Of a stretch of DNA of 64,000 nucleotides, positions 18,347-59,349 are shown one piece after another (positions within the stretch are counted from its first letter, which is position 1; every line of letters starts with the position of its first letter). The DNA is taken from positions 7,276 to 71,275 of the forward strand of contig CALXJI010000007.1 of NCBI GenBank assembly GCA_944388585.1, written 5' to 3'. The position numbers were made by a program, and so were the translations under genes. Source of the stretch: an uncultured Clostridia bacterium (lineage in GTDB: Bacteria; Bacillota; Clostridia; TANB77; CAG-465). The notes beneath the pieces are model-generated. The model was not told the DNA's origin, made no database searches, and saw only the letters and a program-made list of their open reading frames with translations.

Positions 18347-19087
18347 TTAATTATCTTCTATTTTTATACTTTTAAAAACATTTCCTATTGAGTCATTAAT
18401 AACCAGAGTTGCTCTACTATCAAAAGGAGTTTTTTCTTTATTGATTAATACAATATATTTTCCTTTAAAGTATTGTATAAGATAAGAGGCAGGATATACT
18501 ACAAGAGAGGTTCCACCAATAATTAGCATATCACATGATGAAATATCTTTTATCGCTTGCGAATATATATTCTCATCTAAAGGTTCTTCATAAAGTACAA
18601 CGTCTGGCTTTATTATTCCACCACAGTTGCATTTTGGTATATTGCCATTATAATTAAATACATATTCTGCACTATAAAATTTATTACATCTTGTACAAAA
18701 GTTCCTTAAAACGCTACCATGGAGCTCTAATACATGTTTTGATCCTGCTTTTTGATGTAGCCCATCTATATTTTGGGTAATTACAGATTTAAGTTTCCCT
18801 TTTTCTTCTAATTTAGCAAGTGTATAGTGAGTAATATTTGGCATATATTTTAAAGAATTTAATTTATCTTTATAAAATTTAAAAAATTCTTCTGTATTAT
18901 TTATAAAGAAAGTATGGTTTAAAATTTCTTCAGGTGGATATTTATATTTCATGTTATAAAGTCCATCTTTACTTCTAAAATCTGGTATCCCACTTTCTGT
19001 AGATACTCCTGCTCCACCAAAAAACACAATAGAATTAGATTCTTTTATCATTTGATTTAATTTTAATATTTTTTCTTTGTTATTCAT
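18347..19087 (-). CDS. cobB: NAD-dependent protein deacylase, Sir2 family
   Basis: GAGVSTESGIPDFR Rossmann motif with a CTRC...CNCGG zinc-binding pair; 246 aa. Confidence 0.88.
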   Translation of the reverse strand: MNNKEKILKLNQMIKESNSIVFFGGAGVSTESGIPDFRSKDGLYNMKYKYPPEEILNHTFFINNTEEFFKFYKDKLNSLKYMPNITHYTLAKLEEKGKLKSVITQNIDGLHQKAGSKHVLELHGSVLRNFCTRCNKFYSAEYVFNYNGNIPKCNCGGIIKPDVVLYEEPLDENIYSQAIKDISSCDMLIIGGTSLVVYPASYLIQYFKGKYIVLINKEKTPFDSRATLVINDSIGNVFKSIKIEDN

Positions 19088-19151
19088 ATTATCACCATAT
19101 AAATTATATCATAAAAAACACACCTTAATATAAATTAAGATGTGTCAAATT

Positions 19152-19808
19152 TTAGTATGATTGTATTTGTATATTTACGTCAAAATTTTTTGAGCAAGTA
19201 TTCAAAAAGTTTTCTAAATTAATTTTTGCTTGCAAAATGTTTTTTTCATTATTTGAATTTTCAAATATTCTATCTCTTGCTATCTGTTCAAGTGCAAGTG
19301 TTTGATCTGGTGTATAGGTACTACCAAATATACTTTTATTTTCAGATGAGTAAATATCTGTTATATCAACAAAAGATAATTTTATATCGTTTATATTGTA
19401 GTATATTAGTACATTTGCACTTTCATCTATTTTAGTAGTTATATTACTACATTCAATTGTAAATGCTGTAGTATAATTTGCATATACTTTTATATCTGAG
19501 TTAAATAACCATTCTGTCCATGCATTATTTTGTGGTGTTTTATCATGACTTAAAGTTATTTTCCCAGAAGTTCTAAGTAATGTTAATGCTACGTTATTAT
19601 TTATACTTTCAACAAAATTTTCTGCTTTTTCAATTTCTTTATTTAATATTTCTTTTTCTAAATTTATATTTGTTTGAGCTTGTACTTCTTCTTTTAGTTC
19701 ATCTGTTTGTTGGTTATTATATTGAATATATTGGCATATTAAAGACATTAATGCACCTAGCATTACAAAAATTAAAATAAAAAGTAATTTTTTTAAAAAA
19801 ACTTTCAT
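19152..19808 (-). CDS. hypothetical membrane-anchored (signal/TM) coiled-coil protein
   Basis: N-terminal hydrophobic segment; no catalytic motifs; 218 aa. Confidence 0.5.
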   Translation of the reverse strand: MKVFLKKLLFILIFVMLGALMSLICQYIQYNNQQTDELKEEVQAQTNINLEKEILNKEIEKAENFVESINNNVALTLLRTSGKITLSHDKTPQNNAWTEWLFNSDIKVYANYTTAFTIECSNITTKIDESANVLIYYNINDIKLSFVDITDIYSSENKSIFGSTYTPDQTLALEQIARDRIFENSNNEKNILQAKINLENFLNTCSKNFDVNIQIQSY

Positions 19809-20007
19809 AAAATAACCTCCTTTTAAATTTAAAAGAAATAAAAATATACAAGCGTATTTGTATTATATCACACTTTACATAAAAAGTAAATATGACAATA
19901 TCTAGTATTTTGTATAAAAGATGTGAAAAATTGAATAATAGATTGAATAATGTTTTTTTTATTGATACAATTAAAGTGTAAATATGTTTTACAAAGGAGG
20001 AATTTAT

Positions 20008-21174
20008 ATGTTAAAATCAAATGTTGGCTGGAGCATAGACAAGTCTAGTAAAAAAGCTGGTATGGAAGCAGCTCAAAAAGCTATGTCTAACCTAACAAAA
20101 GCTAAGGTTGCATTTGTATATACTTCTGTAGATAATAATGTTGAAGAAGTATTAGAAGGAGTAAAGGAAACTTTAGGTAATGTACCTGTAGTTGGCTGTA
20201 CTTCAAGTGGAGGAATAATTGTACCTGATGGATATATTAATTCAAATAATGGATTTGTTGGTGTAATGGTACTATCAGATAGTGCAATGGAAGTTGGAGT
20301 ATATGGTAGTGCTGCAACAGGTGATGCAAGAGAGACAGGTAGAAAAATTGCTCAAGAGGCAATGAAAAATGCTGGAAAAACTTGTGCCCCTGCTTACTTT
20401 TATATGGTTGCTTCTCCAAAAGAAGAAGAAGACTATTTAAAAGGAATTGAAGATATAGTGGGAAGAATACCTATGTTTGGTGGATCAGCTGCAGATAATA
20501 CTGTTGAAGGAAAATGGGAGATATATGCTAATGATATAGTATTTTCAGATGGTTGTGCTGTTGCATTTTTCTATACAGATAAACCTGTATCAAATGTATA
20601 TACTGGAGCATATCGTGAAACAGATAATGTAGGTATAATAACTAAGGTAGAAGATAAAAGAAGATTAGTTGAAATTAATGGGATTCCTGCTCTAGAGCAA
20701 TATGCAAAATGGACAGGTAAAAAAGTTGAAAACTTAAAGGGTGGCAATTTATTAACTGAAACTATACTTGCACCTTTGGGAGTAAAAGATAGATTAGGAG
20801 ATTTAGTAGCAATACGTCATCCAATGGCTGGAAATGATGATTTATCTATGAATATTGGAAACAACTTAGCTGAAAAAACTGCTGTTATTCAAATGGAAGG
20901 AACAGTAGATGAACTTATAAATTCTACAACAGAAGCATTAAAAGATGTAAAAAAATCACTACCTAATGGCGTTGGTGCATATCTTCTTGTACATTGTGGA
21001 GGAAGAAAATTAGGTATTGGTGATAGAATAGATGAAGTGGCAAAAAGAATAAAAGAAGAAGCTGGAGATACACCATTTATTACAATATTTACTTTTGGTG
21101 AATATGGTTCAAATAATAATGATAGAAATACATGTGGAGGACTTATGTTATCATTTACTGGTCTTGGTAAATGA
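20008..21174 (+). CDS. FIST N/C domain sensory protein
   Basis: AGGAGG RBS; FIST-like sequence with conserved VGCTSSGGII and FGEYG motifs. Confidence 0.75.
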   Translation: MLKSNVGWSIDKSSKKAGMEAAQKAMSNLTKAKVAFVYTSVDNNVEEVLEGVKETLGNVPVVGCTSSGGIIVPDGYINSNNGFVGVMVLSDSAMEVGVYGSAATGDARETGRKIAQEAMKNAGKTCAPAYFYMVASPKEEEDYLKGIEDIVGRIPMFGGSAADNTVEGKWEIYANDIVFSDGCAVAFFYTDKPVSNVYTGAYRETDNVGIITKVEDKRRLVEINGIPALEQYAKWTGKKVENLKGGNLLTETILAPLGVKDRLGDLVAIRHPMAGNDDLSMNIGNNLAEKTAVIQMEGTVDELINSTTEALKDVKKSLPNGVGAYLLVHCGGRKLGIGDRIDEVAKRIKEEAGDTPFITIFTFGEYGSNNNDRNTCGGLMLSFTGLGK

Positions 21175-21366
21175 AGAGCTCCACAGGGTAATCCTAAAAA
21201 TCTAATTGGATATGAATGGAAAGATGCATCAGATGGAAATTATATTGAGGTAGTTAACCCTGCTACTCAAGAAACTATTGCAAAAGTTCCTAATTGTTCA
21301 TTAGATGATGTTGATGAGGCTGTAAATGTTGCAAAAGTAGAGCAGAAAAAATGGGCTAAAATTCCT

Positions 21367-22626
21367 ATGCACGAAAGAGGAAGAATACTAGAAAAGTTTG
21401 TGGATTTAGTTGAAGAAAACGCAGATGATCTAGCATGGCTTTTATCTAGTGAGACAGGTAAACCTATTAAAGAAGCTATTGCAGAAATTGGAAATACAAG
21501 AAATTTTGTTTATGGTTATGTTGAAAAAGCAAAACATTTATATGGTGAAAGTTTAGTTGGAGAAGCAGAACCTGGACAAGAGAAACATATGCAAATTACA
21601 GTAAGAGAACCTCTTGGTGTTGTTGCATGTATAATACCATTTAACTTCCCTTGCGACTTATTTGGTCAAAAAGTACCATCAGCTTTAATAATGGGAAATT
21701 CTGTTATAGTAAAACCATCTAATTATAATCCATTAACACTTATAGAATATGTAAGATTAATGGTAAAAGCTGGTGTTCCTGCAGGTGCTATTCAAGTATT
21801 AACAGGAGATGGACCAATAGTTGGTCAGGCACTTGCAAGACATAAAGGAGTAAGTCTTGTATCTCTTACAGGAAGTACTGCTGTTGGAATGCAAACTATG
21901 GAGACATGTTCTAAAAACTTAACACATGTTATGTTAGAGCTTGGTGGAAATGATGCATTCATTATGCTTGAAGATGGAGATATGGATTTGGCAGTAAAAG
22001 AAGTTATATGGGGTAGACTATATAATGGTGGACAAGTATGTTGTGCAAGTAAAAGATTTTTAATACATAATTCTAGAAAAAAAGAATTTATCGATAGAAT
22101 GAAAGAAGTAATTTCTAAATTAAAAGTAGGAGATCCTTCAAGATTTGATACAGATATGGGACCACTTATTAATATTCCTGCAGCAAAAAGAGTAGAGGAA
22201 TATGTAAATAAAACTGTTGAACAAGGTGCAAAGATAGTATGTGGTGGAAAAAGATATTCAGCGTACTATGGACCAACTATACTAGATAATGTTACAAAAG
22301 ATATGGATGTAGCAAAAGATATGGAAATTTTTGGACCTGTAATTCCAGTTATAGGATTTGATACAATTGATGAAGCTATTGAGATTGCAAATCAATCATC
22401 ATATGGTTTATGTGGTTGTGTAATAACTAAAGACTATAAAGTTGGAATGCAAGTTGCAGCAAGACTTGAATGTGGTGGTGTTGTAATTAATGGAGCAAGT
22501 TTCTTTAGAAGTGCTGAAATGCCATTTGGTGGTTGGAAGCATAGTGGAATAGGAAATGAAGGAATTTCAACAACATTAGAAGAAATGTCTAGAATAAAAA
22601 CAATAGTTCTAAAAGATATATTATAA
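21367..22626 (+). CDS. NAD(P)-dependent aldehyde dehydrogenase; the reading frame is open back to 21175 without a start codon, so the N-terminus is probably frameshifted
   Basis: Catalytic Glu in ELGGNDA and catalytic Cys in GQVCCAS. The upstream in-frame region encodes the typical ALDH N-terminus NLIGYEWKDASDGNYIEVVNPAT but contains no ATG, GTG or TTG. Confidence 0.8.
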   Translation: MHERGRILEKFVDLVEENADDLAWLLSSETGKPIKEAIAEIGNTRNFVYGYVEKAKHLYGESLVGEAEPGQEKHMQITVREPLGVVACIIPFNFPCDLFGQKVPSALIMGNSVIVKPSNYNPLTLIEYVRLMVKAGVPAGAIQVLTGDGPIVGQALARHKGVSLVSLTGSTAVGMQTMETCSKNLTHVMLELGGNDAFIMLEDGDMDLAVKEVIWGRLYNGGQVCCASKRFLIHNSRKKEFIDRMKEVISKLKVGDPSRFDTDMGPLINIPAAKRVEEYVNKTVEQGAKIVCGGKRYSAYYGPTILDNVTKDMDVAKDMEIFGPVIPVIGFDTIDEAIEIANQSSYGLCGCVITKDYKVGMQVAARLECGGVVINGASFFRSAEMPFGGWKHSGIGNEGISTTLEEMSRIKTIVLKDIL

Positions 22627-22668
22627 AATTAAAATAAAAGTACAAAATAAAATTAGGAGGTTATTTAA

Positions 22669-23820
22669 GTGGTAGAAAAATTTGTATTGAATGAAACATC
22701 TTATTTTGGAAAAGGTGCAAGAGAAGTTCTTGTACAAGAATTGAAAAATAGAGGCTTTAAAAAAGCTTTAGTTGTTACAGATAAATCATTATATGATGCT
22801 CACGTAACAAAAAAAGTTACAGATGAATTAGATAAAGGAAATTTTAATTATTCTGTCTATTCAGATGTAAAGCCTAATCCAACAAAGAAAAATGTATGGG
22901 ATGGTTTAAGAGCTTGTAAAGAGGCAGAAGCTGACGTTTTAGTTGCAGTAGGTGGAGGCTCAAGTATTGATACAGCTAAAGCAATATCAATAATAATGAC
23001 AAATCCAGAAAATGAAGATATAGTATCCCTAGAAGGAGCAGCTACAACAAAAAATAAAGGACTACCAATTATTGCTTTACCTACAACTGCCGGAACTGCT
23101 GCAGAGGTTACAATAAATTACGTTATAACTGATGAAGATAGAGAAGTAAAAATGGTATGTGTTGATCCACATGATATACCAATTATTGCAATTATTGATA
23201 CAGAGCTTATGGCTTCAATGCCAAAATCTATTGCTTCATCAACAGGAATGGATGCATTAACACATGCTATTGAAGGATATATTACAAAAGCACATAATAC
23301 AATGTCAGATATGTTCCATATGGAAGCAATCAAGTTAATATTTAAATATTTACCAGCTGCTGTAAATGAGAAAGATGAGGAAGCAATAAATAAAATGGGG
23401 CTTGCTCAATATATAGCTGGTATGGGATTTTCAAATGTAGGACTTGGAATAGTACATTCTATGGCACATCAACTTGGTGCAGTTTATGATACACCTCATG
23501 GACTTGCAAATGCAATATTACTACCTACAGTTATGAGATTTAATGGTGAAGTATGTTATGAAAGATTTAGAGATATTCTTATAGCTTTAGGTGTAGATGC
23601 TAAAGATATGAATAAAGAGCAAGTTATAGATAAATTTGTAGAAATGATACAAGAATTATCTAAAAAGGTTGGAATAACACAAACAGTAAAAGATACTGGA
23701 TGTAAAGAAGAAGACTTTGAAATGCTAGCACAAAAAGCAATGAATGATGCATGTAGACCTGGAAATCCAAGAGAAACTACAAAAGAAGATTTTATAGAAT
23801 TATTTAAAAAAGCAATGTAA
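22669..23820 (+). CDS. iron-containing (group III) alcohol dehydrogenase
   Basis: GTG start with an AGGAGG RBS; GGGSSIDTAKAIS motif; conserved His residues (HAIEGY, HSMAHQLG). Confidence 0.88.
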   Translation: MVEKFVLNETSYFGKGAREVLVQELKNRGFKKALVVTDKSLYDAHVTKKVTDELDKGNFNYSVYSDVKPNPTKKNVWDGLRACKEAEADVLVAVGGGSSIDTAKAISIIMTNPENEDIVSLEGAATTKNKGLPIIALPTTAGTAAEVTINYVITDEDREVKMVCVDPHDIPIIAIIDTELMASMPKSIASSTGMDALTHAIEGYITKAHNTMSDMFHMEAIKLIFKYLPAAVNEKDEEAINKMGLAQYIAGMGFSNVGLGIVHSMAHQLGAVYDTPHGLANAILLPTVMRFNGEVCYERFRDILIALGVDAKDMNKEQVIDKFVEMIQELSKKVGITQTVKDTGCKEEDFEMLAQKAMNDACRPGNPRETTKEDFIELFKKAM

Positions 23821-23825
23821 AATGA

Positions 23826-23856
23826 AAAGACAGCTCAAGCAGAGCTGTCTTTTTAG
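23826..23856. terminator. bidirectional rho-independent terminator
   Basis: AAAGACAGCTC-AAGCA-GAGCTGTCTTT hairpin with a flanking T-run; convergent genes on either side. Confidence 0.7.
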
Positions 23857-24539
23857 CTATTGGATGGTTTTCTTCTTTTGTGTTTTGAAAGAGTATTGTC
23901 TATTAATATAAGAATGTAACAAGCCGCAATGAATAATAGACTTATAAGTATAAGGTATTTAATTACACCTCCAACACCTATTTTGTCTATATCCAAAAAG
24001 AAATATGCGTATTTTCTTGATCCACCAGATCCAAAGAATTTTCCACCATGAGAGGAATAAGTGTACACATATATCAAATATAGTGATGGAAATATATACC
24101 ATAGTAAAGGATATTTTAACTTAAAATGTCCCTTATCATCAAATATTAAGTAATCTACAAAAACCATAATTGGTGTTATAAAATGTACAAAGACATTTGA
24201 AATACTAAAAATATTTGATGATGTATTTACATTTGCATCCATTATAAATCCTGTAGGATATAAGGATATTAAATAGATGGTAAATGTAAGTAGGATTATC
24301 ATTATAGTAGCACCTTTTAGAAAATAGTATACATCACACTTTTTCCAATCAGATTTGAATTGGGAGATCACAATGCTTAACAGATAAAAAGTAAGCACAA
24401 ATAGATTGCTTTGCATGGTGTAAAAAGATAAAATACTTGTTACAGAGCTTGTGTTTAGAATATTAGACAAAATACCAATTAAACAGCAAATAATTACTGC
24501 CATTTCGAACACAAAAGAAAGTCTTCTTTTGATATTCAT
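23853..24539 (-). CDS. Pr6Pr-like polytopic membrane protein (hypothetical)
   Basis: The ATG at 24539 is preceded by AAAGGTGG; about 6 TM helices; FYTMQSN motif. Confidence 0.6.
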   Translation of the reverse strand: MNIKRRLSFVFEMAVIICCLIGILSNILNTSSVTSILSFYTMQSNLFVLTFYLLSIVISQFKSDWKKCDVYYFLKGATIMIILLTFTIYLISLYPTGFIMDANVNTSSNIFSISNVFVHFITPIMVFVDYLIFDDKGHFKLKYPLLWYIFPSLYLIYVYTYSSHGGKFFGSGGSRKYAYFFLDIDKIGVGGVIKYLILISLLFIAACYILILIDNTLSKHKRRKPSNS

Positions 24540-24735
24540 ATTGCACCACCTTTCTGTATCCCATATTATACTATATTTTATACTACTTTTCAACATTATA
24601 GTTTACTATAATATTAATTGACAAGGGATTAATATGACGATATAATATAAAAAATAAAAAAAGGTGTTGAAAAATAGTGTTAATATATAAAAATACATTT
24701 TTTAGTGTATAATTTATATATCTTAGGGGGAAAAT

Positions 24736-25491: not shown

Positions 25492-25567
25492 GCTTGTAGA
25501 TTTCAATCTATGAGCTTTTTTGTATAAATTTATAAAAAAAACTCATAACAATATTAGGAGAATAGCT

Positions 25568-27055
25568 ATGAAAAATTTATTAGAATATGTAAAAAGTAGG
25601 ATTAAAGATTTAGACGATATTTTTATTAGAAGATTAAATGTAGATGATAATGAAATTAATTTAGTATATAATGAAGCTTTAGTTGATTCTACTATGATAT
25701 CTAATTTTGTTGTTAGAAGTATTGTAGAGTGTATTAGAGAAGAAAAAGTATTAAATGAAATAGATGAAAAAAATAATAGTTTAGAAGATAAAATAAATAA
25801 AAGACTTGGAAATAAAAAAGATATAAATTTAGAAGATACTATAGCGATCAATAAGATAAAAAGAGTTGATCCTGAACAAGAGAATATATTTTATTATATA
25901 ATGTCAGGATTTGTATTAATTATATATAAAGATATAGCTTATGTGGTAGAGACAAGAGGAACACTTACTAGAAGTATAAGTGAACCTACTAGCGAAAATT
26001 CTATAAGAGGAGCAAAGGACTCTTTTGTAGAAAATATAATGAAGAATATAGGACTTATAAGAAATAGGATAAAAACAGAGAATCTAGCTTATAAAGAAAA
26101 AAGGCTTGGAAGAAAAAGTAAAACAAAAGTTGGTATCATGTATATTACAGATATTTCAAAAAAAGATTTGGTAAAATATGTAGAAGAAAAAATAGATAAA
26201 ATTGATATTGATGGTATACTTGATGTAAATTATATTCAAGAATTTATAGAAGAAAAAAATGATTCAGATTTTCCAATATCAATTAATACGCAAAGACCTG
26301 ATGTTGTATCATATTATTTACTTCAAGGAAGAATAGTAATACTTGTAGATAATAGCCCTTATGCATTAGTATTACCAGCATTTTTTGAAGATTTTATTAA
26401 TAATATAGATGATTTGTATCAAAAATCAAAAAATGTTACTTTTACAAAGATAATAAGATATATATCATTAATACTTACAATTTTAACACCAGCACTATAT
26501 TTATCTTTAATAACATTTGATCAAGAATCAATACCAAGTGAACTTTTAACTGCATTTGCTACTCAAAGAGAAGGAGTACCTTTTCCAGCATTTGTAGAGG
26601 CAATAATTATGATATTTTCTTTTGAAATTTTAAGAGAAAGTGATATGAGGTCTAATAAAGTATCTGGTAATACACTCTCTATTGTAGGTGCTCTAATACT
26701 TGGAGATGCAGCTGTTAGTGCAGGTATTGTATCTCCAATTATGATAATAGTAGTAGCAATTACTACAATTTCAGGACTTAATTTTTCAGATATTAATGTT
26801 ATAAATGTACTTAGAAAATGGAGAGCTATTTTTATGCTTTTTGCAAGTTTGTGTGGAATAATAGGAATTGGAATAGCTACTATATTATTTATAGCAAGTT
26901 TGGTATCTACTGTTAGTTATACTAAGCCTTTTACTTATCCAGTATCACCTTTAAATTTTACAGAAATGAGAAAAAATTTGTTTACTAGATTAAGTATATC
27001 AAAAGATAAAAAAAGACAAAAAATTCTTACAAATAATTTAACAAAGAGTAGGTGA
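25568..27055 (+). CDS. spore germination protein, GerA (A-subunit) family
   Basis: GerA-family sequence with C-terminal membrane helices; first gene of an A-C-B operon. Confidence 0.85.
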   Translation: MKNLLEYVKSRIKDLDDIFIRRLNVDDNEINLVYNEALVDSTMISNFVVRSIVECIREEKVLNEIDEKNNSLEDKINKRLGNKKDINLEDTIAINKIKRVDPEQENIFYYIMSGFVLIIYKDIAYVVETRGTLTRSISEPTSENSIRGAKDSFVENIMKNIGLIRNRIKTENLAYKEKRLGRKSKTKVGIMYITDISKKDLVKYVEEKIDKIDIDGILDVNYIQEFIEEKNDSDFPISINTQRPDVVSYYLLQGRIVILVDNSPYALVLPAFFEDFINNIDDLYQKSKNVTFTKIIRYISLILTILTPALYLSLITFDQESIPSELLTAFATQREGVPFPAFVEAIIMIFSFEILRESDMRSNKVSGNTLSIVGALILGDAAVSAGIVSPIMIIVVAITTISGLNFSDINVINVLRKWRAIFMLFASLCGIIGIGIATILFIASLVSTVSYTKPFTYPVSPLNFTEMRKNLFTRLSISKDKKRQKILTNNLTKSR

Positions 27056-35413: not shown

Positions 35414-35572
35414 AAAATCACCTCAATAGAGTATATTAATTAAAATATATAAATATTACTAATGAAATATATATTAAATATATTCACTTTACATAATTTT
35501 AAATATGTGATATAATATATGCAGTTTTAAAAATACAAATGATATAAAAATTTATAGGAGGTGTAAATAACT

Positions 35573-36409
35573 ATGATTATTAGTTATGAAAAAGAAAATT
35601 TTCTTAAAAGGATATGGAAAGAGATATTTCATAAAAGAGAAGCTTTACCAGTAGCATTGGAATATACACAAAAAGAAGTAACATTAAGATTAGAAGGAAT
35701 ATTAGATTATTTAAAAAATGGTTTTGATTTTAGAAATAAAAGTATTGAAAAATTCGACAATAATATAAGAAATGTAAATATGTATTTTTTTGAAAAAAAT
35801 CAAAAAGATATAGAAAATACTTTAGAAACTTATATTAAAACTGTAGGAAAAAGAAAAGTTAGATTAAATGGTAATATGAAACTTGTATTTAATGATCCAA
35901 TTTTAATACATGATAATGTATTAGAAGTTTTTCCAAATTTAAATATTCCGAAACTTTCAAGAAAAGATTATATTATGCAGATATATTTTAATGCAGTAAA
36001 ATTATTTGCTAGAAAGATGTTAAAAACTAAAAGAATAACAAAGCATACCACTAAGACTATATATTCATATGGAATTAACAGAAGAAGTGTAATAGTCTAT
36101 TGTGGTAGAATATCAAATATAAGCAAAACAGAGTATAAAATATTAAATGATATTTTTGCATATATTATTGCTCAAATTTTGTATGAAGGAAGAGAAAACG
36201 AGCCTTTTACTTTTGAGCTAAGTAATGAGCAAAATAAGCAATTAAAGATGGTAAAATATTATATTTCTAGAAGTTATGTAGATTATGGTCAATTTATACT
36301 AGACTATATGTTATGTAGTGATAGACTTGAAGAGAAAATTGTTAAAAATAATGATATAAATAATTTTAGTGATTTAGAAGAAAAATTAAAAAACAGAATT
36401 AAAAAATGA
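35573..36409 (+). CDS. hypothetical protein
   Basis: 278-aa ORF with an AGGAGG RBS; no recognised motifs. Confidence 0.5.
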   Translation: MIISYEKENFLKRIWKEIFHKREALPVALEYTQKEVTLRLEGILDYLKNGFDFRNKSIEKFDNNIRNVNMYFFEKNQKDIENTLETYIKTVGKRKVRLNGNMKLVFNDPILIHDNVLEVFPNLNIPKLSRKDYIMQIYFNAVKLFARKMLKTKRITKHTTKTIYSYGINRRSVIVYCGRISNISKTEYKILNDIFAYIIAQILYEGRENEPFTFELSNEQNKQLKMVKYYISRSYVDYGQFILDYMLCSDRLEEKIVKNNDINNFSDLEEKLKNRIKK

Positions 36410-45009: not shown

Positions 45010-46620
45010 ATGATAGGAACAAACGGTGTTACAGTAAGATTTGGAAAAAGAGTTTTATATGAAGATGTAAATGTAAAATTTACACCAGGAAACTGTTATG
45101 GAGTAATAGGAGCAAATGGTGCAGGAAAATCTACTTTTTTAAAAGTTTTAACTGGTGAATTAGAGCCTAGTGAAGGCGAAGTCTACATGACTAAAAATGA
45201 GATATTAGGAATATTAAAGCAAGATCATTATATGTATGATGAAGTAAAAGTATTAGATACAGTTATTAGAGGAAATGAAAGACTTTATGAGATAATGAAA
45301 GAAAAAGATGCTTTGTATGCTAAACCAGATTTTAATGATGAGGATGGAATAAAAGCTGGAGAGCTAGAAGCAGAATTTGCAGAATTGAATGGATGGATGG
45401 CAGAAACTGATGCAGCACAACTTTTATCAGGACTTGGAATAGATCTAGAGCTTCATGAGTGCTTAATGAAAGAATTAACAGGACCTCAAAAAGTTAAAGT
45501 GTTACTTGCTCAAGCTTTATTTGGTAATCCAGATGTATTAATCTTAGACGAACCTACAAATAATTTAGATATCGCTGCAATAAATTGGTTAGAGGAATTT
45601 TTAATTAATTTTGAAAATACTGTTATTGTTGTATCTCATGATAGATATTTTTTAAATAAAGTATGTACTCATATATTGGATATAGACTATGGAAAAATTA
45701 ATTTATATGTTGGAAACTATGATTTCTGGTATGAATCAAGTCAATTAGCATTAAAACAAATGAAAGATGCTAATAAGAAAAAAGAAGAAAAGATAAAAGA
45801 ATTAGAAGACTTTATTAGAAGATTTAGTGCAAATGCTTCAAAATCTAAACAAGCAACATCAAGAAAGAAAACTTTAGAAAAAATACAACTTGATGAAATT
45901 AAACCTTCAACAAGAAGATATCCTTTTATAGATTTTAAACCAGAAAGAGAATCAGGAAAAGAAATATTATCTGTTGAAGATATAAGTGTAAATATTGATG
46001 GAGAACAAATATTAAATAATGTTTCATTTAAGGTATTAAAAGGAGATAAAATAGCGCTTGTAGGCTCAAATAGTATTGCAAAGACTACTTTATTTAAAGT
46101 TATAATGGGGCAAATTAAACCAAATACAGGAAAAATTACTTTTGGACAAACAATAAAACCTTCATATGTGCCACAAGATAATGATGAATTTTTTAAAGAA
46201 GATAAAAGTATAGTTGAGTGGATTGCAGATGATTATGGAATAACAGATGAAACAGTAGTAAGAAGTTTCTTGGGAAGAATGCTATTTTCGGGAGATGAAG
46301 CATTAAAAAAATTAAATGTACTTTCTGGTGGAGAAAAAGCAAGATGTATGTTTGCTAGAGCAATGCTTGAAGCACCTAATTTATTATTTTTAGATGAACC
46401 AACAAATCATTTAGATTTGGAGAGTATTACTGCATTAAATGAAGGACTAATTAGAACAAGTGCAGAGGTTATTTTTGTATCACATGATCATCAATTTGTA
46501 CAGACTATTGCTAACAGAATAATTCAAATAACAGATAATGGTATTATGGATAAAAGATGTACATACGACGAGTATTTAGAGCAAAATGAAGAGCTTATGA
46601 AAAAAGAAACTAGTTATTAG
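45010..46620 (+). CDS. ABC-F family ATPase (tandem ABC domains, no TMD; EttA/YdiF-like)
   Basis: Two Walker A motifs (GANGAGKST, GSNSIAKTT), two signature/Walker B sets, arm insertion in NBD1, and a K/E-rich inter-domain linker. Confidence 0.85.
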   Translation: MIGTNGVTVRFGKRVLYEDVNVKFTPGNCYGVIGANGAGKSTFLKVLTGELEPSEGEVYMTKNEILGILKQDHYMYDEVKVLDTVIRGNERLYEIMKEKDALYAKPDFNDEDGIKAGELEAEFAELNGWMAETDAAQLLSGLGIDLELHECLMKELTGPQKVKVLLAQALFGNPDVLILDEPTNNLDIAAINWLEEFLINFENTVIVVSHDRYFLNKVCTHILDIDYGKINLYVGNYDFWYESSQLALKQMKDANKKKEEKIKELEDFIRRFSANASKSKQATSRKKTLEKIQLDEIKPSTRRYPFIDFKPERESGKEILSVEDISVNIDGEQILNNVSFKVLKGDKIALVGSNSIAKTTLFKVIMGQIKPNTGKITFGQTIKPSYVPQDNDEFFKEDKSIVEWIADDYGITDETVVRSFLGRMLFSGDEALKKLNVLSGGEKARCMFARAMLEAPNLLFLDEPTNHLDLESITALNEGLIRTSAEVIFVSHDHQFVQTIANRIIQITDNGIMDKRCTYDEYLEQNEELMKKETSY

Positions 46621-46629
46621 GAGGGTATA

Positions 46630-47748
46630 ATGGCAAAGTATCCAGATTATGATAATAGTATATTATCAGTGATTTCTTCAATTTTAAAGTTTTATGGATA
46701 TGATAATGGGCATAAAACGTTAGAAATTTTGGATAAAAAACTAAAAAAAGGTTATGATAATGTACTTCTTATGCTTTTTGATGGAATGGGATATTATATA
46801 TTAAATAGATATTTAGATAAAGATAAATTTTTAATAAAAAATTTATATGGCCCTATATCATCAGTATGTCCTTCCACAACAGCTTGTGCTATTCCAACTA
46901 TTGAAAGTGGAATGGCCCCTATTGAACATGGGTGGCTTGGATGGTCTATGTATTTTAAAGATTATGATGCAAATATTTGTGTATTAAAAAATACGTATGA
47001 AGATACTGGAAAAAAAATAAAAGAAGAAAATATAGCTAAAAAATATATAGGCTATGAGAATATTTTTGAAAAAATAGAAGACGTAACTAATGGCGCTGTT
47101 AAAGCACATGATATTTCATTATATTCAGATACAAATGAATATGTATATAGCTATAATCAGTTATTAAGAAAAATAATTGAAATTTCTAATAATGGAAGGA
47201 AAAATTTTATTTATGCATATTCTGAGGAACCAGATATAATAATGCATTCTACTGGCGTAGATCATGAATATGTAAAAGAAAATATAAGATTTATAAATAG
47301 TATGATATATGAATTATCTAAAAAATTAGAAAATACATTAATTATTATTACAGCAGATCATGGACTTGTAAATTGTAATGCAAAGTATTTAGATAAATAC
47401 CCAAAATTAGAAAAAATGTTAAAACGTATACCAAGCTTTGAATCCAGAGCAGTTAATTTTTTTGTAAAGGAAGAATATGTTAAAGACTTTAAAACCGAGT
47501 TCGAAAAAGTATTTAAAGATAAATTTCTCTTATTGAGTAGAGAAGAAATTTTAAAAGGAAAATTATTTGGAGAAGGAAGTCAAAATTCACATATAAGAGA
47601 AACTTTAGGGGATTATATGGCTTTTGGAATTTCTGATGTAGCTTTAGAATGGGAAGATAAAAATAAAAAAATTATAGCAAGACACGCTGGACTTACAGAA
47701 GAGGAAATGACAGTTCCTTTAATTATAATAGATACAAAAAATGTATAA
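46630..47748 (+). CDS. alkaline-phosphatase-superfamily protein (type I phosphodiesterase / nucleotide pyrophosphatase-like)
   Basis: Metal-binding motifs LMLFDGMGY and ITADHG; 372 aa. Confidence 0.7.
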   Translation: MAKYPDYDNSILSVISSILKFYGYDNGHKTLEILDKKLKKGYDNVLLMLFDGMGYYILNRYLDKDKFLIKNLYGPISSVCPSTTACAIPTIESGMAPIEHGWLGWSMYFKDYDANICVLKNTYEDTGKKIKEENIAKKYIGYENIFEKIEDVTNGAVKAHDISLYSDTNEYVYSYNQLLRKIIEISNNGRKNFIYAYSEEPDIIMHSTGVDHEYVKENIRFINSMIYELSKKLENTLIIITADHGLVNCNAKYLDKYPKLEKMLKRIPSFESRAVNFFVKEEYVKDFKTEFEKVFKDKFLLLSREEILKGKLFGEGSQNSHIRETLGDYMAFGISDVALEWEDKNKKIIARHAGLTEEEMTVPLIIIDTKNV

Positions 47749-57990: not shown

Positions 57991-58701
57991 ATGGAAAAAA
58001 AGGTAAATAAAGCTAATTTAAAAGACATTAAAAACATAAATATCAAAATGAATAATGATGGGAATATTATTGAACAATTAAAAAATATTTATAAAAAAAA
58101 CTTAGTAAAAAAACATATTATTTTATTTTTTATTATGACTATTATATTTGTATCATATTTTATATATAATATTAACTTGTATAAATCAGGAAATATTAGT
58201 ATTCCAGATGGAATTGTTACAAATAGCTTTTGGAATATGGTAAAAGAAAATTTCTTCATTTGTGCAGTTATAATATTTGCTGGAATTACGCCATATGCTT
58301 GTATATCTATAATTGGAATAATTCAGGCAGCTTTACTTGTATATGATATGATTTTAAGGTATGTATATGGAAGTAGTACTTTACCTACTTTATTTGTTGG
58401 AGGAATAATTGAAATAATTGGATTTTCTTTATGTATAGCGGTAGGATTATATTATTGTAAATTATCTACAATGAAGAGTAAATATAATAACTTTTCAAGT
58501 TTTTCTTTTAATGACATAAAAAAACAATTATATGAGTTAAGACAAAATAAAAAGAAAGTCGATGAAATTGAAAGAAAAAAAGAAAAAAAATATAAAAAAA
58601 TACAAGAATATAATGTCAAAGTACCATATGGTAAATTTGTGCTTTTTGGGTTAATTAGCTTTATTATTAGCTTCGTTGGATTGTTAATAACTAGAATTTA
58701 A
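57991..58701 (+). CDS. hypothetical polytopic membrane protein (SpoIIM/DUF95-like?)
   Basis: 4-5 TM helices with a K-rich cytoplasmic loop; family assignment uncertain. Confidence 0.5.
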   Translation: MEKKVNKANLKDIKNINIKMNNDGNIIEQLKNIYKKNLVKKHIILFFIMTIIFVSYFIYNINLYKSGNISIPDGIVTNSFWNMVKENFFICAVIIFAGITPYACISIIGIIQAALLVYDMILRYVYGSSTLPTLFVGGIIEIIGFSLCIAVGLYYCKLSTMKSKYNNFSSFSFNDIKKQLYELRQNKKKVDEIERKKEKKYKKIQEYNVKVPYGKFVLFGLISFIISFVGLLITRI

Positions 58702-58710
58702 GGAGGAAAA

Positions 58711-59349
58711 ATGAGAACAAGATACAATGCCAAAGCAATAGATGAACTAAATAGGTTTGAAAGATATATAAAAACAAAAGAAGATATACAAGAAATAATA
58801 AATAAAAAAAATAATATGAAAATATATCTTGAAATAGGAATGGGAAAAGGTGATTTTATAACAAAGCTTTCTCAATTAGACAAAGATAATATTTATATAG
58901 GAGTAGAAGTATCTCCACCAGTACTTGCTTTAGCTGTAAAAAAATTAAAAAGATACAAAAAAGAAAATAATGTTATATTAGATAATCTATATTTTATGTC
59001 TTTTGATGCAATAGATATAGCTAGCTTTTTTCAAGAGCATCAAATAGAAAAAATATATTTAAATTTTAGTGATCCATGGCCAAAGAAAAAACATGCTAAA
59101 AGAAGACTTACTAATGAAAGATTTTTAGAAGAATATAAAAAAGTTTTAAAAAAGAATGGAAGAATAGAATTTAAAACAGATAACAGAGGATTGTTTGAGT
59201 ACAGTTTAGTGAGTATGCAAAATTTCGGATTAAAATTTATAGAGGTGTATTTAGATTTACACAAAACTGATGTGTTTAATATTGAAACAGAATATGAAAA
59301 GAAGTTTTCTCCTTTTGGACCAATCTATAAAATAATAGTAGAGTATTAG
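58711..59349 (+). CDS. trmB: tRNA (guanine46-N7)-methyltransferase
   Basis: LEIGMGKGDF SAM-binding motif and FSDPWPKKKHAKRRL. Confidence 0.92.
   Translation: MRTRYNAKAIDELNRFERYIKTKEDIQEIINKKNNMKIYLEIGMGKGDFITKLSQLDKDNIYIGVEVSPPVLALAVKKLKRYKKENNVILDNLYFMSFDAIDIASFFQEHQIEKIYLNFSDPWPKKKHAKRRLTNERFLEEYKKVLKKNGRIEFKTDNRGLFEYSLVSMQNFGLKFIEVYLDLHKTDVFNIETEYEKKFSPFGPIYKIIVEY

Follow-up and report, generated by a model that had tools for sequence, protein, structure and literature searches.

How is an aldehyde dehydrogenase (ALDH) made when its gene lacks a start codon and its reading frame opens directly behind the stop codon of the upstream gene? This question is raised by a locus of an uncultured Clostridia bacterium, located within a stretch of 64,000 nt of contig CALXJI010000007.1 (hereafter the window). 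All features described below are on the plus strand. The upstream gene (20008..21174) encodes a FIST-domain protein (PF08495 FIST and PF10442 FIST_C), which is 388 aa long as called on other contigs and matches the NosP profile weakly (88 bits; cut-off 450). The FIST ORF is open from an ATG at 19984 and ends with ...CGGLMLSFTGLGK-TGA. An exact-sequence look-up of this 396-aa ORF returned no match, because gene callers place the FIST start at 20008. Downstream of the ALDH gene, the same operon contains a gene for an iron-type alcohol dehydrogenase, a lactaldehyde reductase of the FucO type (22669..23820; NF007911, 572 bits vs. cut-off 537). This synteny is kept in relatives. The best reading of the locus, which we consider somewhat more probable than all others together, is a conserved readthrough of the FIST UGA that would yield a FIST-ALDH fusion and on which, or on a related recoding event, the ALDH of the window clade would depend.

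A selected ALDH N-terminus without a start codon

From 21175 onwards, the ALDH frame reads RAPQGNPKNLIGYEWKDASDGNYIEVVNPATQE... An ORF listing confirmed what had been noticed from the letters of the window: this frame is open and contains no ATG, GTG or TTG until 21367, where the remainder of the gene would encode a 419-aa product (21367..22626; PF00171; stop TAA at 22624-26). The 59 codons in front of it (21190..21366, NPKNLIGYEW...KIP) comprise no canonical start codon and encode a real ALDH N-terminus that is under selection. ALDH profile HMMs match the frame-0 product from residues 3-21 to about 474, and membership in the ALDH superfamily PF00171 is based on a full-length profile match that includes the N-terminal segment. 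The best profile is that of lactaldehyde dehydrogenase with 443 bits, which is below the equivalog cut-off of 650, so that no substrate specificity is assigned. Across nine species-level lineages of the clade, the 59 start-less codons show a dN/dS of 0.09-0.38 at a dS of 0.34-0.89 and no stop codon. In every segment of the gene dN/dS is 0.03-0.38, and the nine lineages do not differ by any indel. At the strain level, five of six SNPs are synonymous third-position changes. The sequence-only reading had recognized the upstream frame as the true N-terminus, and this stands. It had also allowed for orthologues that start at the internal Met. Full-length orthologues begin instead with MKNLIGYEW, and their start codon, ATG or GTG, aligns with CCT 21193-95.

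A sequencing error does not explain the absence of a start codon, nor does a dead gene; both explanations had been put forward together with slip-strand switching. It had been proposed that removal of one G from the GGG run at 21186-21188 repairs the frame. A product of 484 aa indeed results, but the run has no privileged role: one base removed anywhere between 21174 and 21189 yields the same MKSSTGNPKNLIGYEW... A homopolymer sequencing or assembly error, for which nothing speaks beyond the look of the single window, has a negligible probability. GGG was found in 26/26 contigs from nine species-level lineages; these contigs derive from independent samples, and their record names point to different assemblers, long-read ones included. 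The GG allele gave 0 matches in a scan of a collection with only 2 copies of the locus. Slip-strand switching would need a run of more than three Gs, and variants of its length were not observed.

A decaying or truncated gene would produce the 419-aa protein from ATG 21367 alone, or nothing, and the upstream frame would be a leftover. In agreement with this, gene callers give 419-421 aa for the ALDH in each of the three protein clusters, which comprise 134, 67 and 9 sequences, and the exact 419-aa form is called on 19 contigs. Such a protein would miss about 60 positions at the start of the ALDH profile, and the purifying selection on the 59 upstream codons, which contain neither indel nor stop, contradicts a pseudogene as well as the short product. 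Truncation is therefore very improbable. Rather, annotation pipelines shorten the ALDH in at least three protein clusters.

One reading frame across the FIST stop

FIST and ALDH ORFs are in one frame (21175-19984 = 1191 = 397x3), and therefore a single TGA (21172-74) separates them. The sequence-only reading had missed this common frame. Seven codons behind the TGA (R A P Q G N P, 21175..21195) form the linker. Elsewhere in the window, two pairs of adjacent ORFs (at 46618 and 58699) also share a frame; their junctions are ordinary ones with SD and ATG.

The continuous FIST-TGA-linker-ALDH frame is kept in about 30 species of gut Clostridia. Related Clostridia contribute 25 more distinct linkers, in which FIST likewise ends with TGA-A; the spacers to ALDH vary between 21 and 258 nt and are without exception a multiple of 3. 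The whole set, 26 distinct TGA-type linkers from Clostridia MAGs, comprises lengths of 18, 21, 27, 36, 39, 42, 51, 54, 60, 81, 84, 99, 117, 120, 123, 126, 129, 159, 192, 198 and 258 nt. Frame 0 contains no stop in 754 codons, while frames +1 and +2 contain 45 and 80 stops, respectively, in 728 codons each. Bacilli-type relatives served as control. Here, FIST ends with TAA or TAG, and the spacers of 4-15 nt are in mixed frames: 15 are out of frame, 3 are in frame with a stop, and 12 are in frame and open.

The Clostridia linkers carry a coding signature. Between the linkers of lineages L039 and L040, differences at the three codon positions number 6/5/17 (64 sites each; Fisher p = 0.002), and the single indel comprises 6 nt. 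Two peptide motifs, R-[AED]-[GDQ]-E-x-P and xPNSGxAE, begin directly after the TGA; the latter is preserved even with ATA or ACA as the first codon. FIST stops with TGA in all Clostridia-type lineages except L021 and L022. The base following this TGA (+4) is always A, and the preceding codon is AAA, AAG or GAA. When the 872-aa readthrough product was used as query, neither an orthologue with a sense codon in place of TGA nor a true FIST-ALDH fusion of this kind was found, which means that the stop itself is retained.

This in-frame conservation behind the UGA in about 30 species suggests that ribosomes read through the stop; the amino acid inserted, the efficiency and a role of the fusion are likewise inferred. 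UGA 21172-74 (context GGU AAA UGA AGA G) would be a conserved recoding site at which most ribosomes terminate and release FIST. A fraction would insert an amino acid, most likely via a near-cognate tRNA, and, to judge from other bacteria, the residue would be Trp. These ribosomes would cross the linker in the same frame and enter ALDH, and a FIST-linker-ALDH fusion of about 872 aa would be synthesized. Insertion of Trp at UGA is cited in PMC7918605, and so is a readthrough of about 6% for catA86-TGA of B. subtilis, a Firmicute in which UGA is leaky. A basal level of a few percent may, however, be low for a metabolic enzyme.

RNA structure speaks partly for and partly against readthrough. In many lineages a hairpin begins 4-10 nt 3' of the UGA (mean z -1.7 over 30 sequences), but that of the window clade is weak (predicted -2 kcal/mol, z about 0). 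A large hairpin around UGA and AUG (21129-21190) was found as MFE structure but is not significant (z = -0.3), and one of its stems is broken by TGT->TGC in 5 lineages without a compensating change. A shorter fold (21160-21240) has a z of +1.0.

A conserved in-frame UGA with a hairpin nearby downstream is also what bacterial selenoprotein genes display. Decoding as selenocysteine, or a genome-wide sense meaning of UGA in these organisms, is nonetheless highly improbable. No Rfam match to SECIS or any other known RNA family was obtained, even at E <= 10. The hairpins are small, and their sequence and distance as well as the sequence behind the UGA vary by lineage. Unlike in selenoprotein genes, the UGA is positioned in an inter-domain linker; Bacilli FIST homologues simply stop here, and no Cys-containing homologue was found. 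UGA as a general sense codon (tables 4/25) is ruled out by ORFs of 985-1499 codons that are intact under code 11 and by the use of TGA as a stop elsewhere in the window, in at least two genes (25514-27055 and 35567-36409).

Translational bypass as in T4 gene 60 has to be considered, too. Peptidyl-tRNA-Lys would take off at AAA 21169-71 and land at AAA 21196-98, and 24 nt would be skipped. The codons match, the stop follows the take-off codon directly, and an SD-like AGGG is located 7 nt before the landing codon. Nothing in the sequence alone separates bypass from readthrough. The outgroup linkers, to judge from their coding signature and stop-free frame, are translated, so that bypass is unnecessary; we regard it as just as improbable as selenocysteine.

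The invariant junction of the window clade

Relatives outside the window clade keep an SD and ATG or GTG for ALDH, so that both free and fused enzyme are possible there: most related species would synthesize fused ALDH in addition to free ALDH from its own start. The window clade has neither SD nor start codon for ALDH. Its linker measures 18 nt, and the ancestral ATG site is now CCT or CCA. Since both signals are missing, the ALDH N-terminus would have to be reached by recoding, on which the ALDH of this clade seems to depend.

The junction is identical in all 26 contigs, and SNPs between strains occur near but never inside it. An invariant 32-nt block (CTTGGTAAATGAAGAGCTCCACAGGGTAATCC, 21163..21194) is shared by all nine lineages. 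Within 2610 aligned nt, where 35% of the columns and 72% of the third positions vary, no other invariant run is as long. The block contains 10 consecutive invariant third positions; the second-best run elsewhere has 7. Variation 3' of the junction begins with CCT/CCA and CTA/TTA; both changes are silent in frame 0, which, like the low dN/dS behind them, is in line with readthrough. Readthrough alone leaves the nucleotide invariance of the 18-nt linker unexplained, as outgroup linkers evolve fast (those of L048 and L049 differ at 4/39 positions), and it would supply no free ALDH in this clade. That outgroups keep an independent start suggests that free ALDH matters.

These two points favour a programmed +1 frameshift as main rival or co-mechanism, which we consider possible but unlikely. 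The sequence-only reading had pointed to an ATG at 21171 that overlaps the FIST stop and opens an ORF of 6 codons ending with GGG-TAA, and this observation was confirmed. The mini-ORF (21171..21191; AUG AAG AGC UCC ACA GGG UAA) is in the -1 frame, its AUG 21171-21173 overlaps the FIST stop (AAATGA/AUGA), and its stop TAA is at 21189-91. Ribosomes that have terminated on FIST would re-initiate at this AUG and synthesize MKSSTG. Once GGG occupies the P site and UAA the A site, the peptidyl-tRNA-Gly would slip from GGG to GGU at the candidate shifty stop GGG_UAA (21186-21191). Decoding would resume at AAU 21190 and yield free ALDH of 484 aa starting with MKSSTGNPKNLIGYEW. Such a shift may replace readthrough or act alongside it. 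The 'genuine frameshift' that had been envisaged would hold in this programmed form only.

The geometry is exact: beside the A-site stop, GGG_U lets anticodon positions one and two re-pair perfectly. All nine lineages have an identical cassette, from the AUG to UAA-UCC, amid third positions that otherwise vary, and dual coding in two frames could explain this. In addition, the shift would make free ALDH available again in a clade that has lost the SD and ATG kept by all outgroups. On the other hand, the AUG results automatically from the conserved GGT AAA TGA, and outgroups with a normal ALDH start possess it as well. GGGTAA resembles a remnant of the ancestral SD and spacer (GGAGGTAA in L018). 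The cassette is present in one clade only and counts as one evolutionary event. UAA-U is regarded as a strong termination context. Furthermore, a frameshift needs no common stop-free FIST/ALDH frame, yet such a frame is present.

The +1 frameshift of prfB (RF2) and the shifty stops CCC_UGA and CCC_UAA, which are in use in bacteria and Firmicute phages, provide the precedent (PMC3082878). The locus shares with them a P-site codon capable of re-pairing at +1 beside an A-site stop, the end of a very short ORF and a strictly conserved cassette. Unlike prfB, it has no SD-like stimulator about 3 nt upstream of the shift codon: the sequence upstream of GGG is AAGAGCUCCACA, and the sole SD-like AGGG overlaps the shift codon. 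Moreover, the stop is UAA-U and not the weak UGA-C, no autoregulatory logic underlies the zero frame, and the frame entered can also be reached by readthrough.

Initiation at an in-frame near-cognate codon, for example AUU 21205, is a further rival. AUU is known as a rare bacterial start codon. An ALDH starting at AUU 21205 would be merely 4 residues shorter than its orthologues, and a residual SD-like sequence (AGGGUAAUC, with the degenerate SD AGGGU) is located upstream. We consider this start improbable. The spacing from GGG to AUU amounts to 16 nt, L024 has ATA at the same codon, and the 12 nt that precede AUU show the conservation pattern of a coding region. Variation upstream of AUU is synonymous only, at both variable sites in frame 0. 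Such a start would account for neither the invariant block nor the open frame across the family.

Readthrough of the UGA, the preferred reading, might also be combined with the shift. In that case, the clade would have a metabolic enzyme without its own initiation codon that is made only by recoding. Two overlapping signals in a cassette of ~20 nt, UGA readthrough for the fusion and the AUGA mini-ORF with the +1 shift at GGG_UAA for free ALDH, would have replaced ancestral readthrough plus an independent start. This scenario is put forward tentatively and is a little less probable than the frameshift as such.

Comparison with known systems

To our knowledge, viruses and eukaryotes provide well-documented cases of functional stop-codon readthrough, but very few have come from bacterial chromosomal genes. 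The comparative-genomic signature of FIST-ALDH is as strong as those by which readthrough was called in insects and mammals. A literature search for FIST-ALDH readthrough found no report. The coat/A1 protein of phage Qbeta is the product of programmed UGA readthrough. The FIST-ALDH junction would resemble it in a leaky UGA that is followed by a selected in-frame extension, with two products per message. Conserved in-frame stops in bacterial genes have been treated before (PMC7918605). Unlike in those cases and in Qbeta, the chromosomal stop described here joins two complete, separately functional genes, one for a sensor-type FIST protein and one for a metabolic enzyme. About 30 species share the arrangement, their linkers measure 18-258 nt, and one clade no longer has a start codon for the downstream gene. 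In eukaryotes, peroxisomal isoforms of LDH and MDH arise by readthrough at a short UGA context (PMC4207609). A short UGA context, a metabolic dehydrogenase that is extended in a minority of molecules and detection by comparative genomics would be common to both. There, the extension is a short targeting signal; here, it would be a whole 478-aa enzyme in a bacterium.

Readthrough would join a sensor-type FIST domain to the ALDH of a lactaldehyde/propanediol-type operon in uncultured gut Clostridia. The window clade can be regarded as a natural experiment on recoding: after the loss of a start codon for the downstream enzyme, recoding would no longer be optional there. Physical coupling of FIST to the dehydrogenases of this operon has a precedent, since fusions between FucO-like Fe-ADH and FIST exist (P0169-P0171; P0169 has 584 member sequences), and this supports readthrough. 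These proteins link the FIST family considered here covalently to a dehydrogenase from this type of operon. Unlike the FIST-ALDH pair, for which a stop codon has to be decoded and the partner is ALDH, they are encoded by single ordinary ORFs in the order ADH then FIST.

Layout and recurrence of the FIST-ALDH junction

The FIST ORF ends with TGA (21172-21174). This stop is overlapped by an ATG (21171-21173, AAATGA) opening the mini-ORF ATG AAG AGC TCC ACA GGG TAA, and the open ALDH frame, encoding RAPQGNPKNLIGYEWKDASDGNYIEVVNPATQE..., begins at 21175. The sequence-only reading had noticed the short TAA-terminated ORF and the lack of ATG, GTG or TTG in the ALDH frame upstream of 21367; the former is borne out by the sequence, the latter by an ORF listing of the window. 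It had not spotted that both ORFs share one common frame with a single TGA between them. Removal of one base from the GGG run (21186-21188) does join the ATG to ALDH, but the run is not special, as any such deletion within 21174-21189 has this effect.

The window has a GC content of 26%, and its open stretches of 150 codons or more terminate with 27 TAA, 14 TAG and 5 TGA. Only about three of these TGA codons end real genes: FIST (TGA-A), 25514-27055 (TGA-T) and 35567-36409 (TGA-G), FIST alone being followed by A. Two other adjacent gene pairs share a frame across TAG and TAA stops (46618-46632 and 58699-58713). Considered as unusual junctions, they proved ordinary, each with a 9-nt spacer carrying a clear Shine-Dalgarno sequence and an ATG.

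The suspected homopolymer sequencing error is refuted by the identical junction in independent contigs and lineages. The exact 419-aa ALDH product recurs among the gene calls of 19 contigs, which come from independent metagenomes; in the nine loci fetched for it, scattered SNPs set them apart from the window, the junction being identical. Two more clusters with 88% identity, P0007 (421 aa, 17 contigs) and P0017 (419 aa, 2 contigs), were likewise called truncated and have the same junction, as do 7/7 species-representative MAGs ('uncultured Clostridia bacterium', 85-99% identity). A metagenome scan yielded two additional GGG copies and no GG allele; as the locus is represented by few copies in this collection, the negative result lends weak support alone. 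In two loci whose contig names suggest long-read assemblies, L005 (560-1519, 3221-4373) and L003 (6370-7042), the gene calls split neighbouring genes (FIST 319 aa, Fe-ADH 209+190 aa, SDR 44+82 aa), probably due to assembly indels or strain-level pseudogenes. Despite these broken neighbours, their FIST-ALDH junction is identical to that of the window.

Nor is ALDH a pseudogene. Across nine species-level lineages (2610 aligned nucleotides, zero indels), dN/dS is 0.09-0.38 in the 59 start-less codons (21190-21366; dS 0.34-0.89), 0.08-0.15 in FIST and 0.03-0.10 in the remaining ALDH. Of six strain-level SNPs in the start-less stretch, five hit third positions and are synonymous. In the frame-0 product, matches to ALDH family profiles start at residues 3-21, so that translation from Met 21367 would leave out the first ~60 profile positions. 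The finding is real and more interesting than originally proposed: judged by comparative sequence data, a conserved in-frame UGA links FIST to ALDH in uncultured gut Clostridia, and the ALDH of one clade lacks its own start codon. The searchable literature yielded no report of this FIST-ALDH case; that bacterial genes may tolerate in-frame stops is, as a general idea, already published (PMC7918605).

Loss of the ALDH start and open linkers

Full-length orthologues (477 aa, 79-82% identity) do not use the internal Met but begin with MKNLIGYEW or MNNLIGYEW, their ATG aligning to CCT 21193-21195 of the window. FIST lies directly 5' of ALDH in these genomes, too, with a good Shine-Dalgarno sequence in between (TGA AGAGAATTTGGAGGTAAAAGA ATG in locus L018, TGA AGAGCTCTTGAAAGGAGAAAAAATAAT ATG in L019). 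The window-clade spacer is shorter and devoid of ATG, but still a multiple of three, while all outgroups have kept an independent ALDH start. AUU 21205 as ALDH start is disfavoured, since variation 5' of this codon is confined to sites synonymous in frame 0. In some outgroups (L034, L040, L041, L053), the first linker codon is ATG (TGA ATG), for which reason gene callers extend ALDH by 43-66 N-terminal residues (e.g. P0008, 530 aa; P0013, 520 aa). In close relatives, this codon is ATA or ACA, and the linker is nonetheless open and coding.

In every fetched locus, we located the stop of FIST and the codon aligned with the ALDH start. Clostridia-type loci with a FIST TGA comprise 26 distinct linkers of 21 lengths (18-258 nt), all 26 being multiples of three. 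As an internal control, stops were counted in all three linker frames: 0 in 754 codons of frame 0 (the FIST/ALDH frame), 45 in 728 codons of frame +1 and 80 in 728 codons of frame +2. TGA is always followed by A and preceded by the codon AAA, AAG or GAA. Linker peptides are rich in E/K/P/Q, with the motifs R-[AED]-[GDQ]-E-x-P and xPNSGxAE directly after TGA. L039 and L040, the long pair that aligns best, differ by a 6-nt indel and, counted per codon position, at 6/5/17 sites (p = 0.002). A search with the 872-aa readthrough product revealed no orthologue with a sense codon replacing TGA, which means that the stop itself is kept. Combined, these linker features are the standard comparative signature expected of functional stop-codon readthrough. 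Bacilli/Mycoplasmatota-type relatives have FIST stops TAA or TAG and spacers of 4-15 nt in mixed frames, some with in-frame stops, and their FIST and ALDH behave as ordinary separate genes.

Readthrough, i.e. ribosomes passing the conserved in-frame UGA of FIST into ALDH, is the reading we rank first and slightly favour. UGA is leaky in Firmicutes, and 6% readthrough has been cited for B. subtilis catA86-TGA (PMC7918605). In many outgroup lineages, the UGA is followed at a distance of 4-10 nt by a small hairpin (mean z -1.7, 30 sequences) with varying stems (GGGG/CCC, GGC/GCC, GCCUC/GAGGC, CUCUU/AGGAG, ACUCUG/CAGAGU) and loops (e.g. L034, L048, L051, L019, L046, L053). The hairpins may act as a readthrough stimulator, but this is no more than suggestive. 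In the window, a predicted MFE hairpin enclosing UGA and AUG (21129-21190) pairs UGUGGAG (21133-21139, stem A) with CUCCACA (21179-21185) and UCAUUUACU (21151-21159) with GGUAAAUGA (21166-21174). It is not significant (z = -0.3) and not maintained, stem A being disrupted by TGT->TGC in five lineages. Selenocysteine insertion at the UGA and a reassigned UGA are both disfavoured. A gene 60-like bypass from AAA 21169 to AAA 21196 is compatible with the sequence but unlikely, being unnecessary given that the outgroup linkers are translated.

An invariant block and a candidate +1 shift

A 32-nt block (21163-21194) coinciding with the mini-ORF AUG AAG AGC UCC ACA GGG UAA and its flanks is invariant in 9/9 window-clade lineages, unlike the fast-evolving outgroup linkers. 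The block includes ten unchanged third positions in a row; across the 2.6 kb of FIST and ALDH, in which 35% of columns and 72% of third positions are variable, it exceeds every other invariant run. Such constancy is not predicted by readthrough with a free linker. Of the genuine frameshift entertained earlier, the pseudogene and slip-strand versions fail. A programmed +1 shift at GGG_UAA persists as second-ranked rival, although we regard it as rather unlikely. By slipping from GGG to GGU, ribosomes would reach the ALDH frame two codons ahead of the ancestral start and produce free ALDH; this would also explain why the clade tolerates the loss of the independent start. GGG_UAA is of the same kind as the reviewed shifty stops CCC_UGA and, in Firmicute phages, CCC_UAA (PMC3082878). 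However, the mini-ORF AUG simply results from the conserved GGT AAA TGA and occurs in outgroups as well, GGGTAA resembles a relic of the ancestral Shine-Dalgarno sequence (GGAGGTAA), and the prfB stimulator has no counterpart at GGG_UAA. UAA-U is regarded as a strong terminator, which also counts against the shift, and the FIST-ALDH frame continuity kept in the clade would not be needed. Readthrough and +1 shift are compatible, and dual use would best explain the invariant block. Frame continuity, conservation and selection are direct observations; readthrough or shifting by ribosomes, and the rate of either, is inferred.

FIST and the dehydrogenases of the operon

The search with the 872-aa product also retrieved single-ORF fusions from outside the window (P0169-P0171, 779-780 aa; P0169 alone has 584 member sequences), in which a FucO-like iron alcohol dehydrogenase is N-terminal and the same FIST family C-terminal. 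The gene 3' of ALDH (22669-23820) encodes a FucO-type lactaldehyde reductase above the NCBIfam curated cut-off; FIST is therefore covalently linked elsewhere to dehydrogenases of this operon type. The fusions are Rosetta-stone evidence for FIST working physically with the operon's dehydrogenases. The best profile match of ALDH is lactaldehyde dehydrogenase, below its cut-off, and the match of FIST to the NO sensor NosP is only weak. A role of the operon in handling lactaldehyde/1,2-propanediol or a related aldehyde is possible. Its surroundings differ within the clade: Compared to the window (18347-24600), both sister lineages (L010-L015 and L016-L017) have a hexapeptide-repeat transferase gene inserted upstream, and the L010 lineage an NMN-transporter gene after FucO, the FIST-ALDH-FucO core being constant in all of them.
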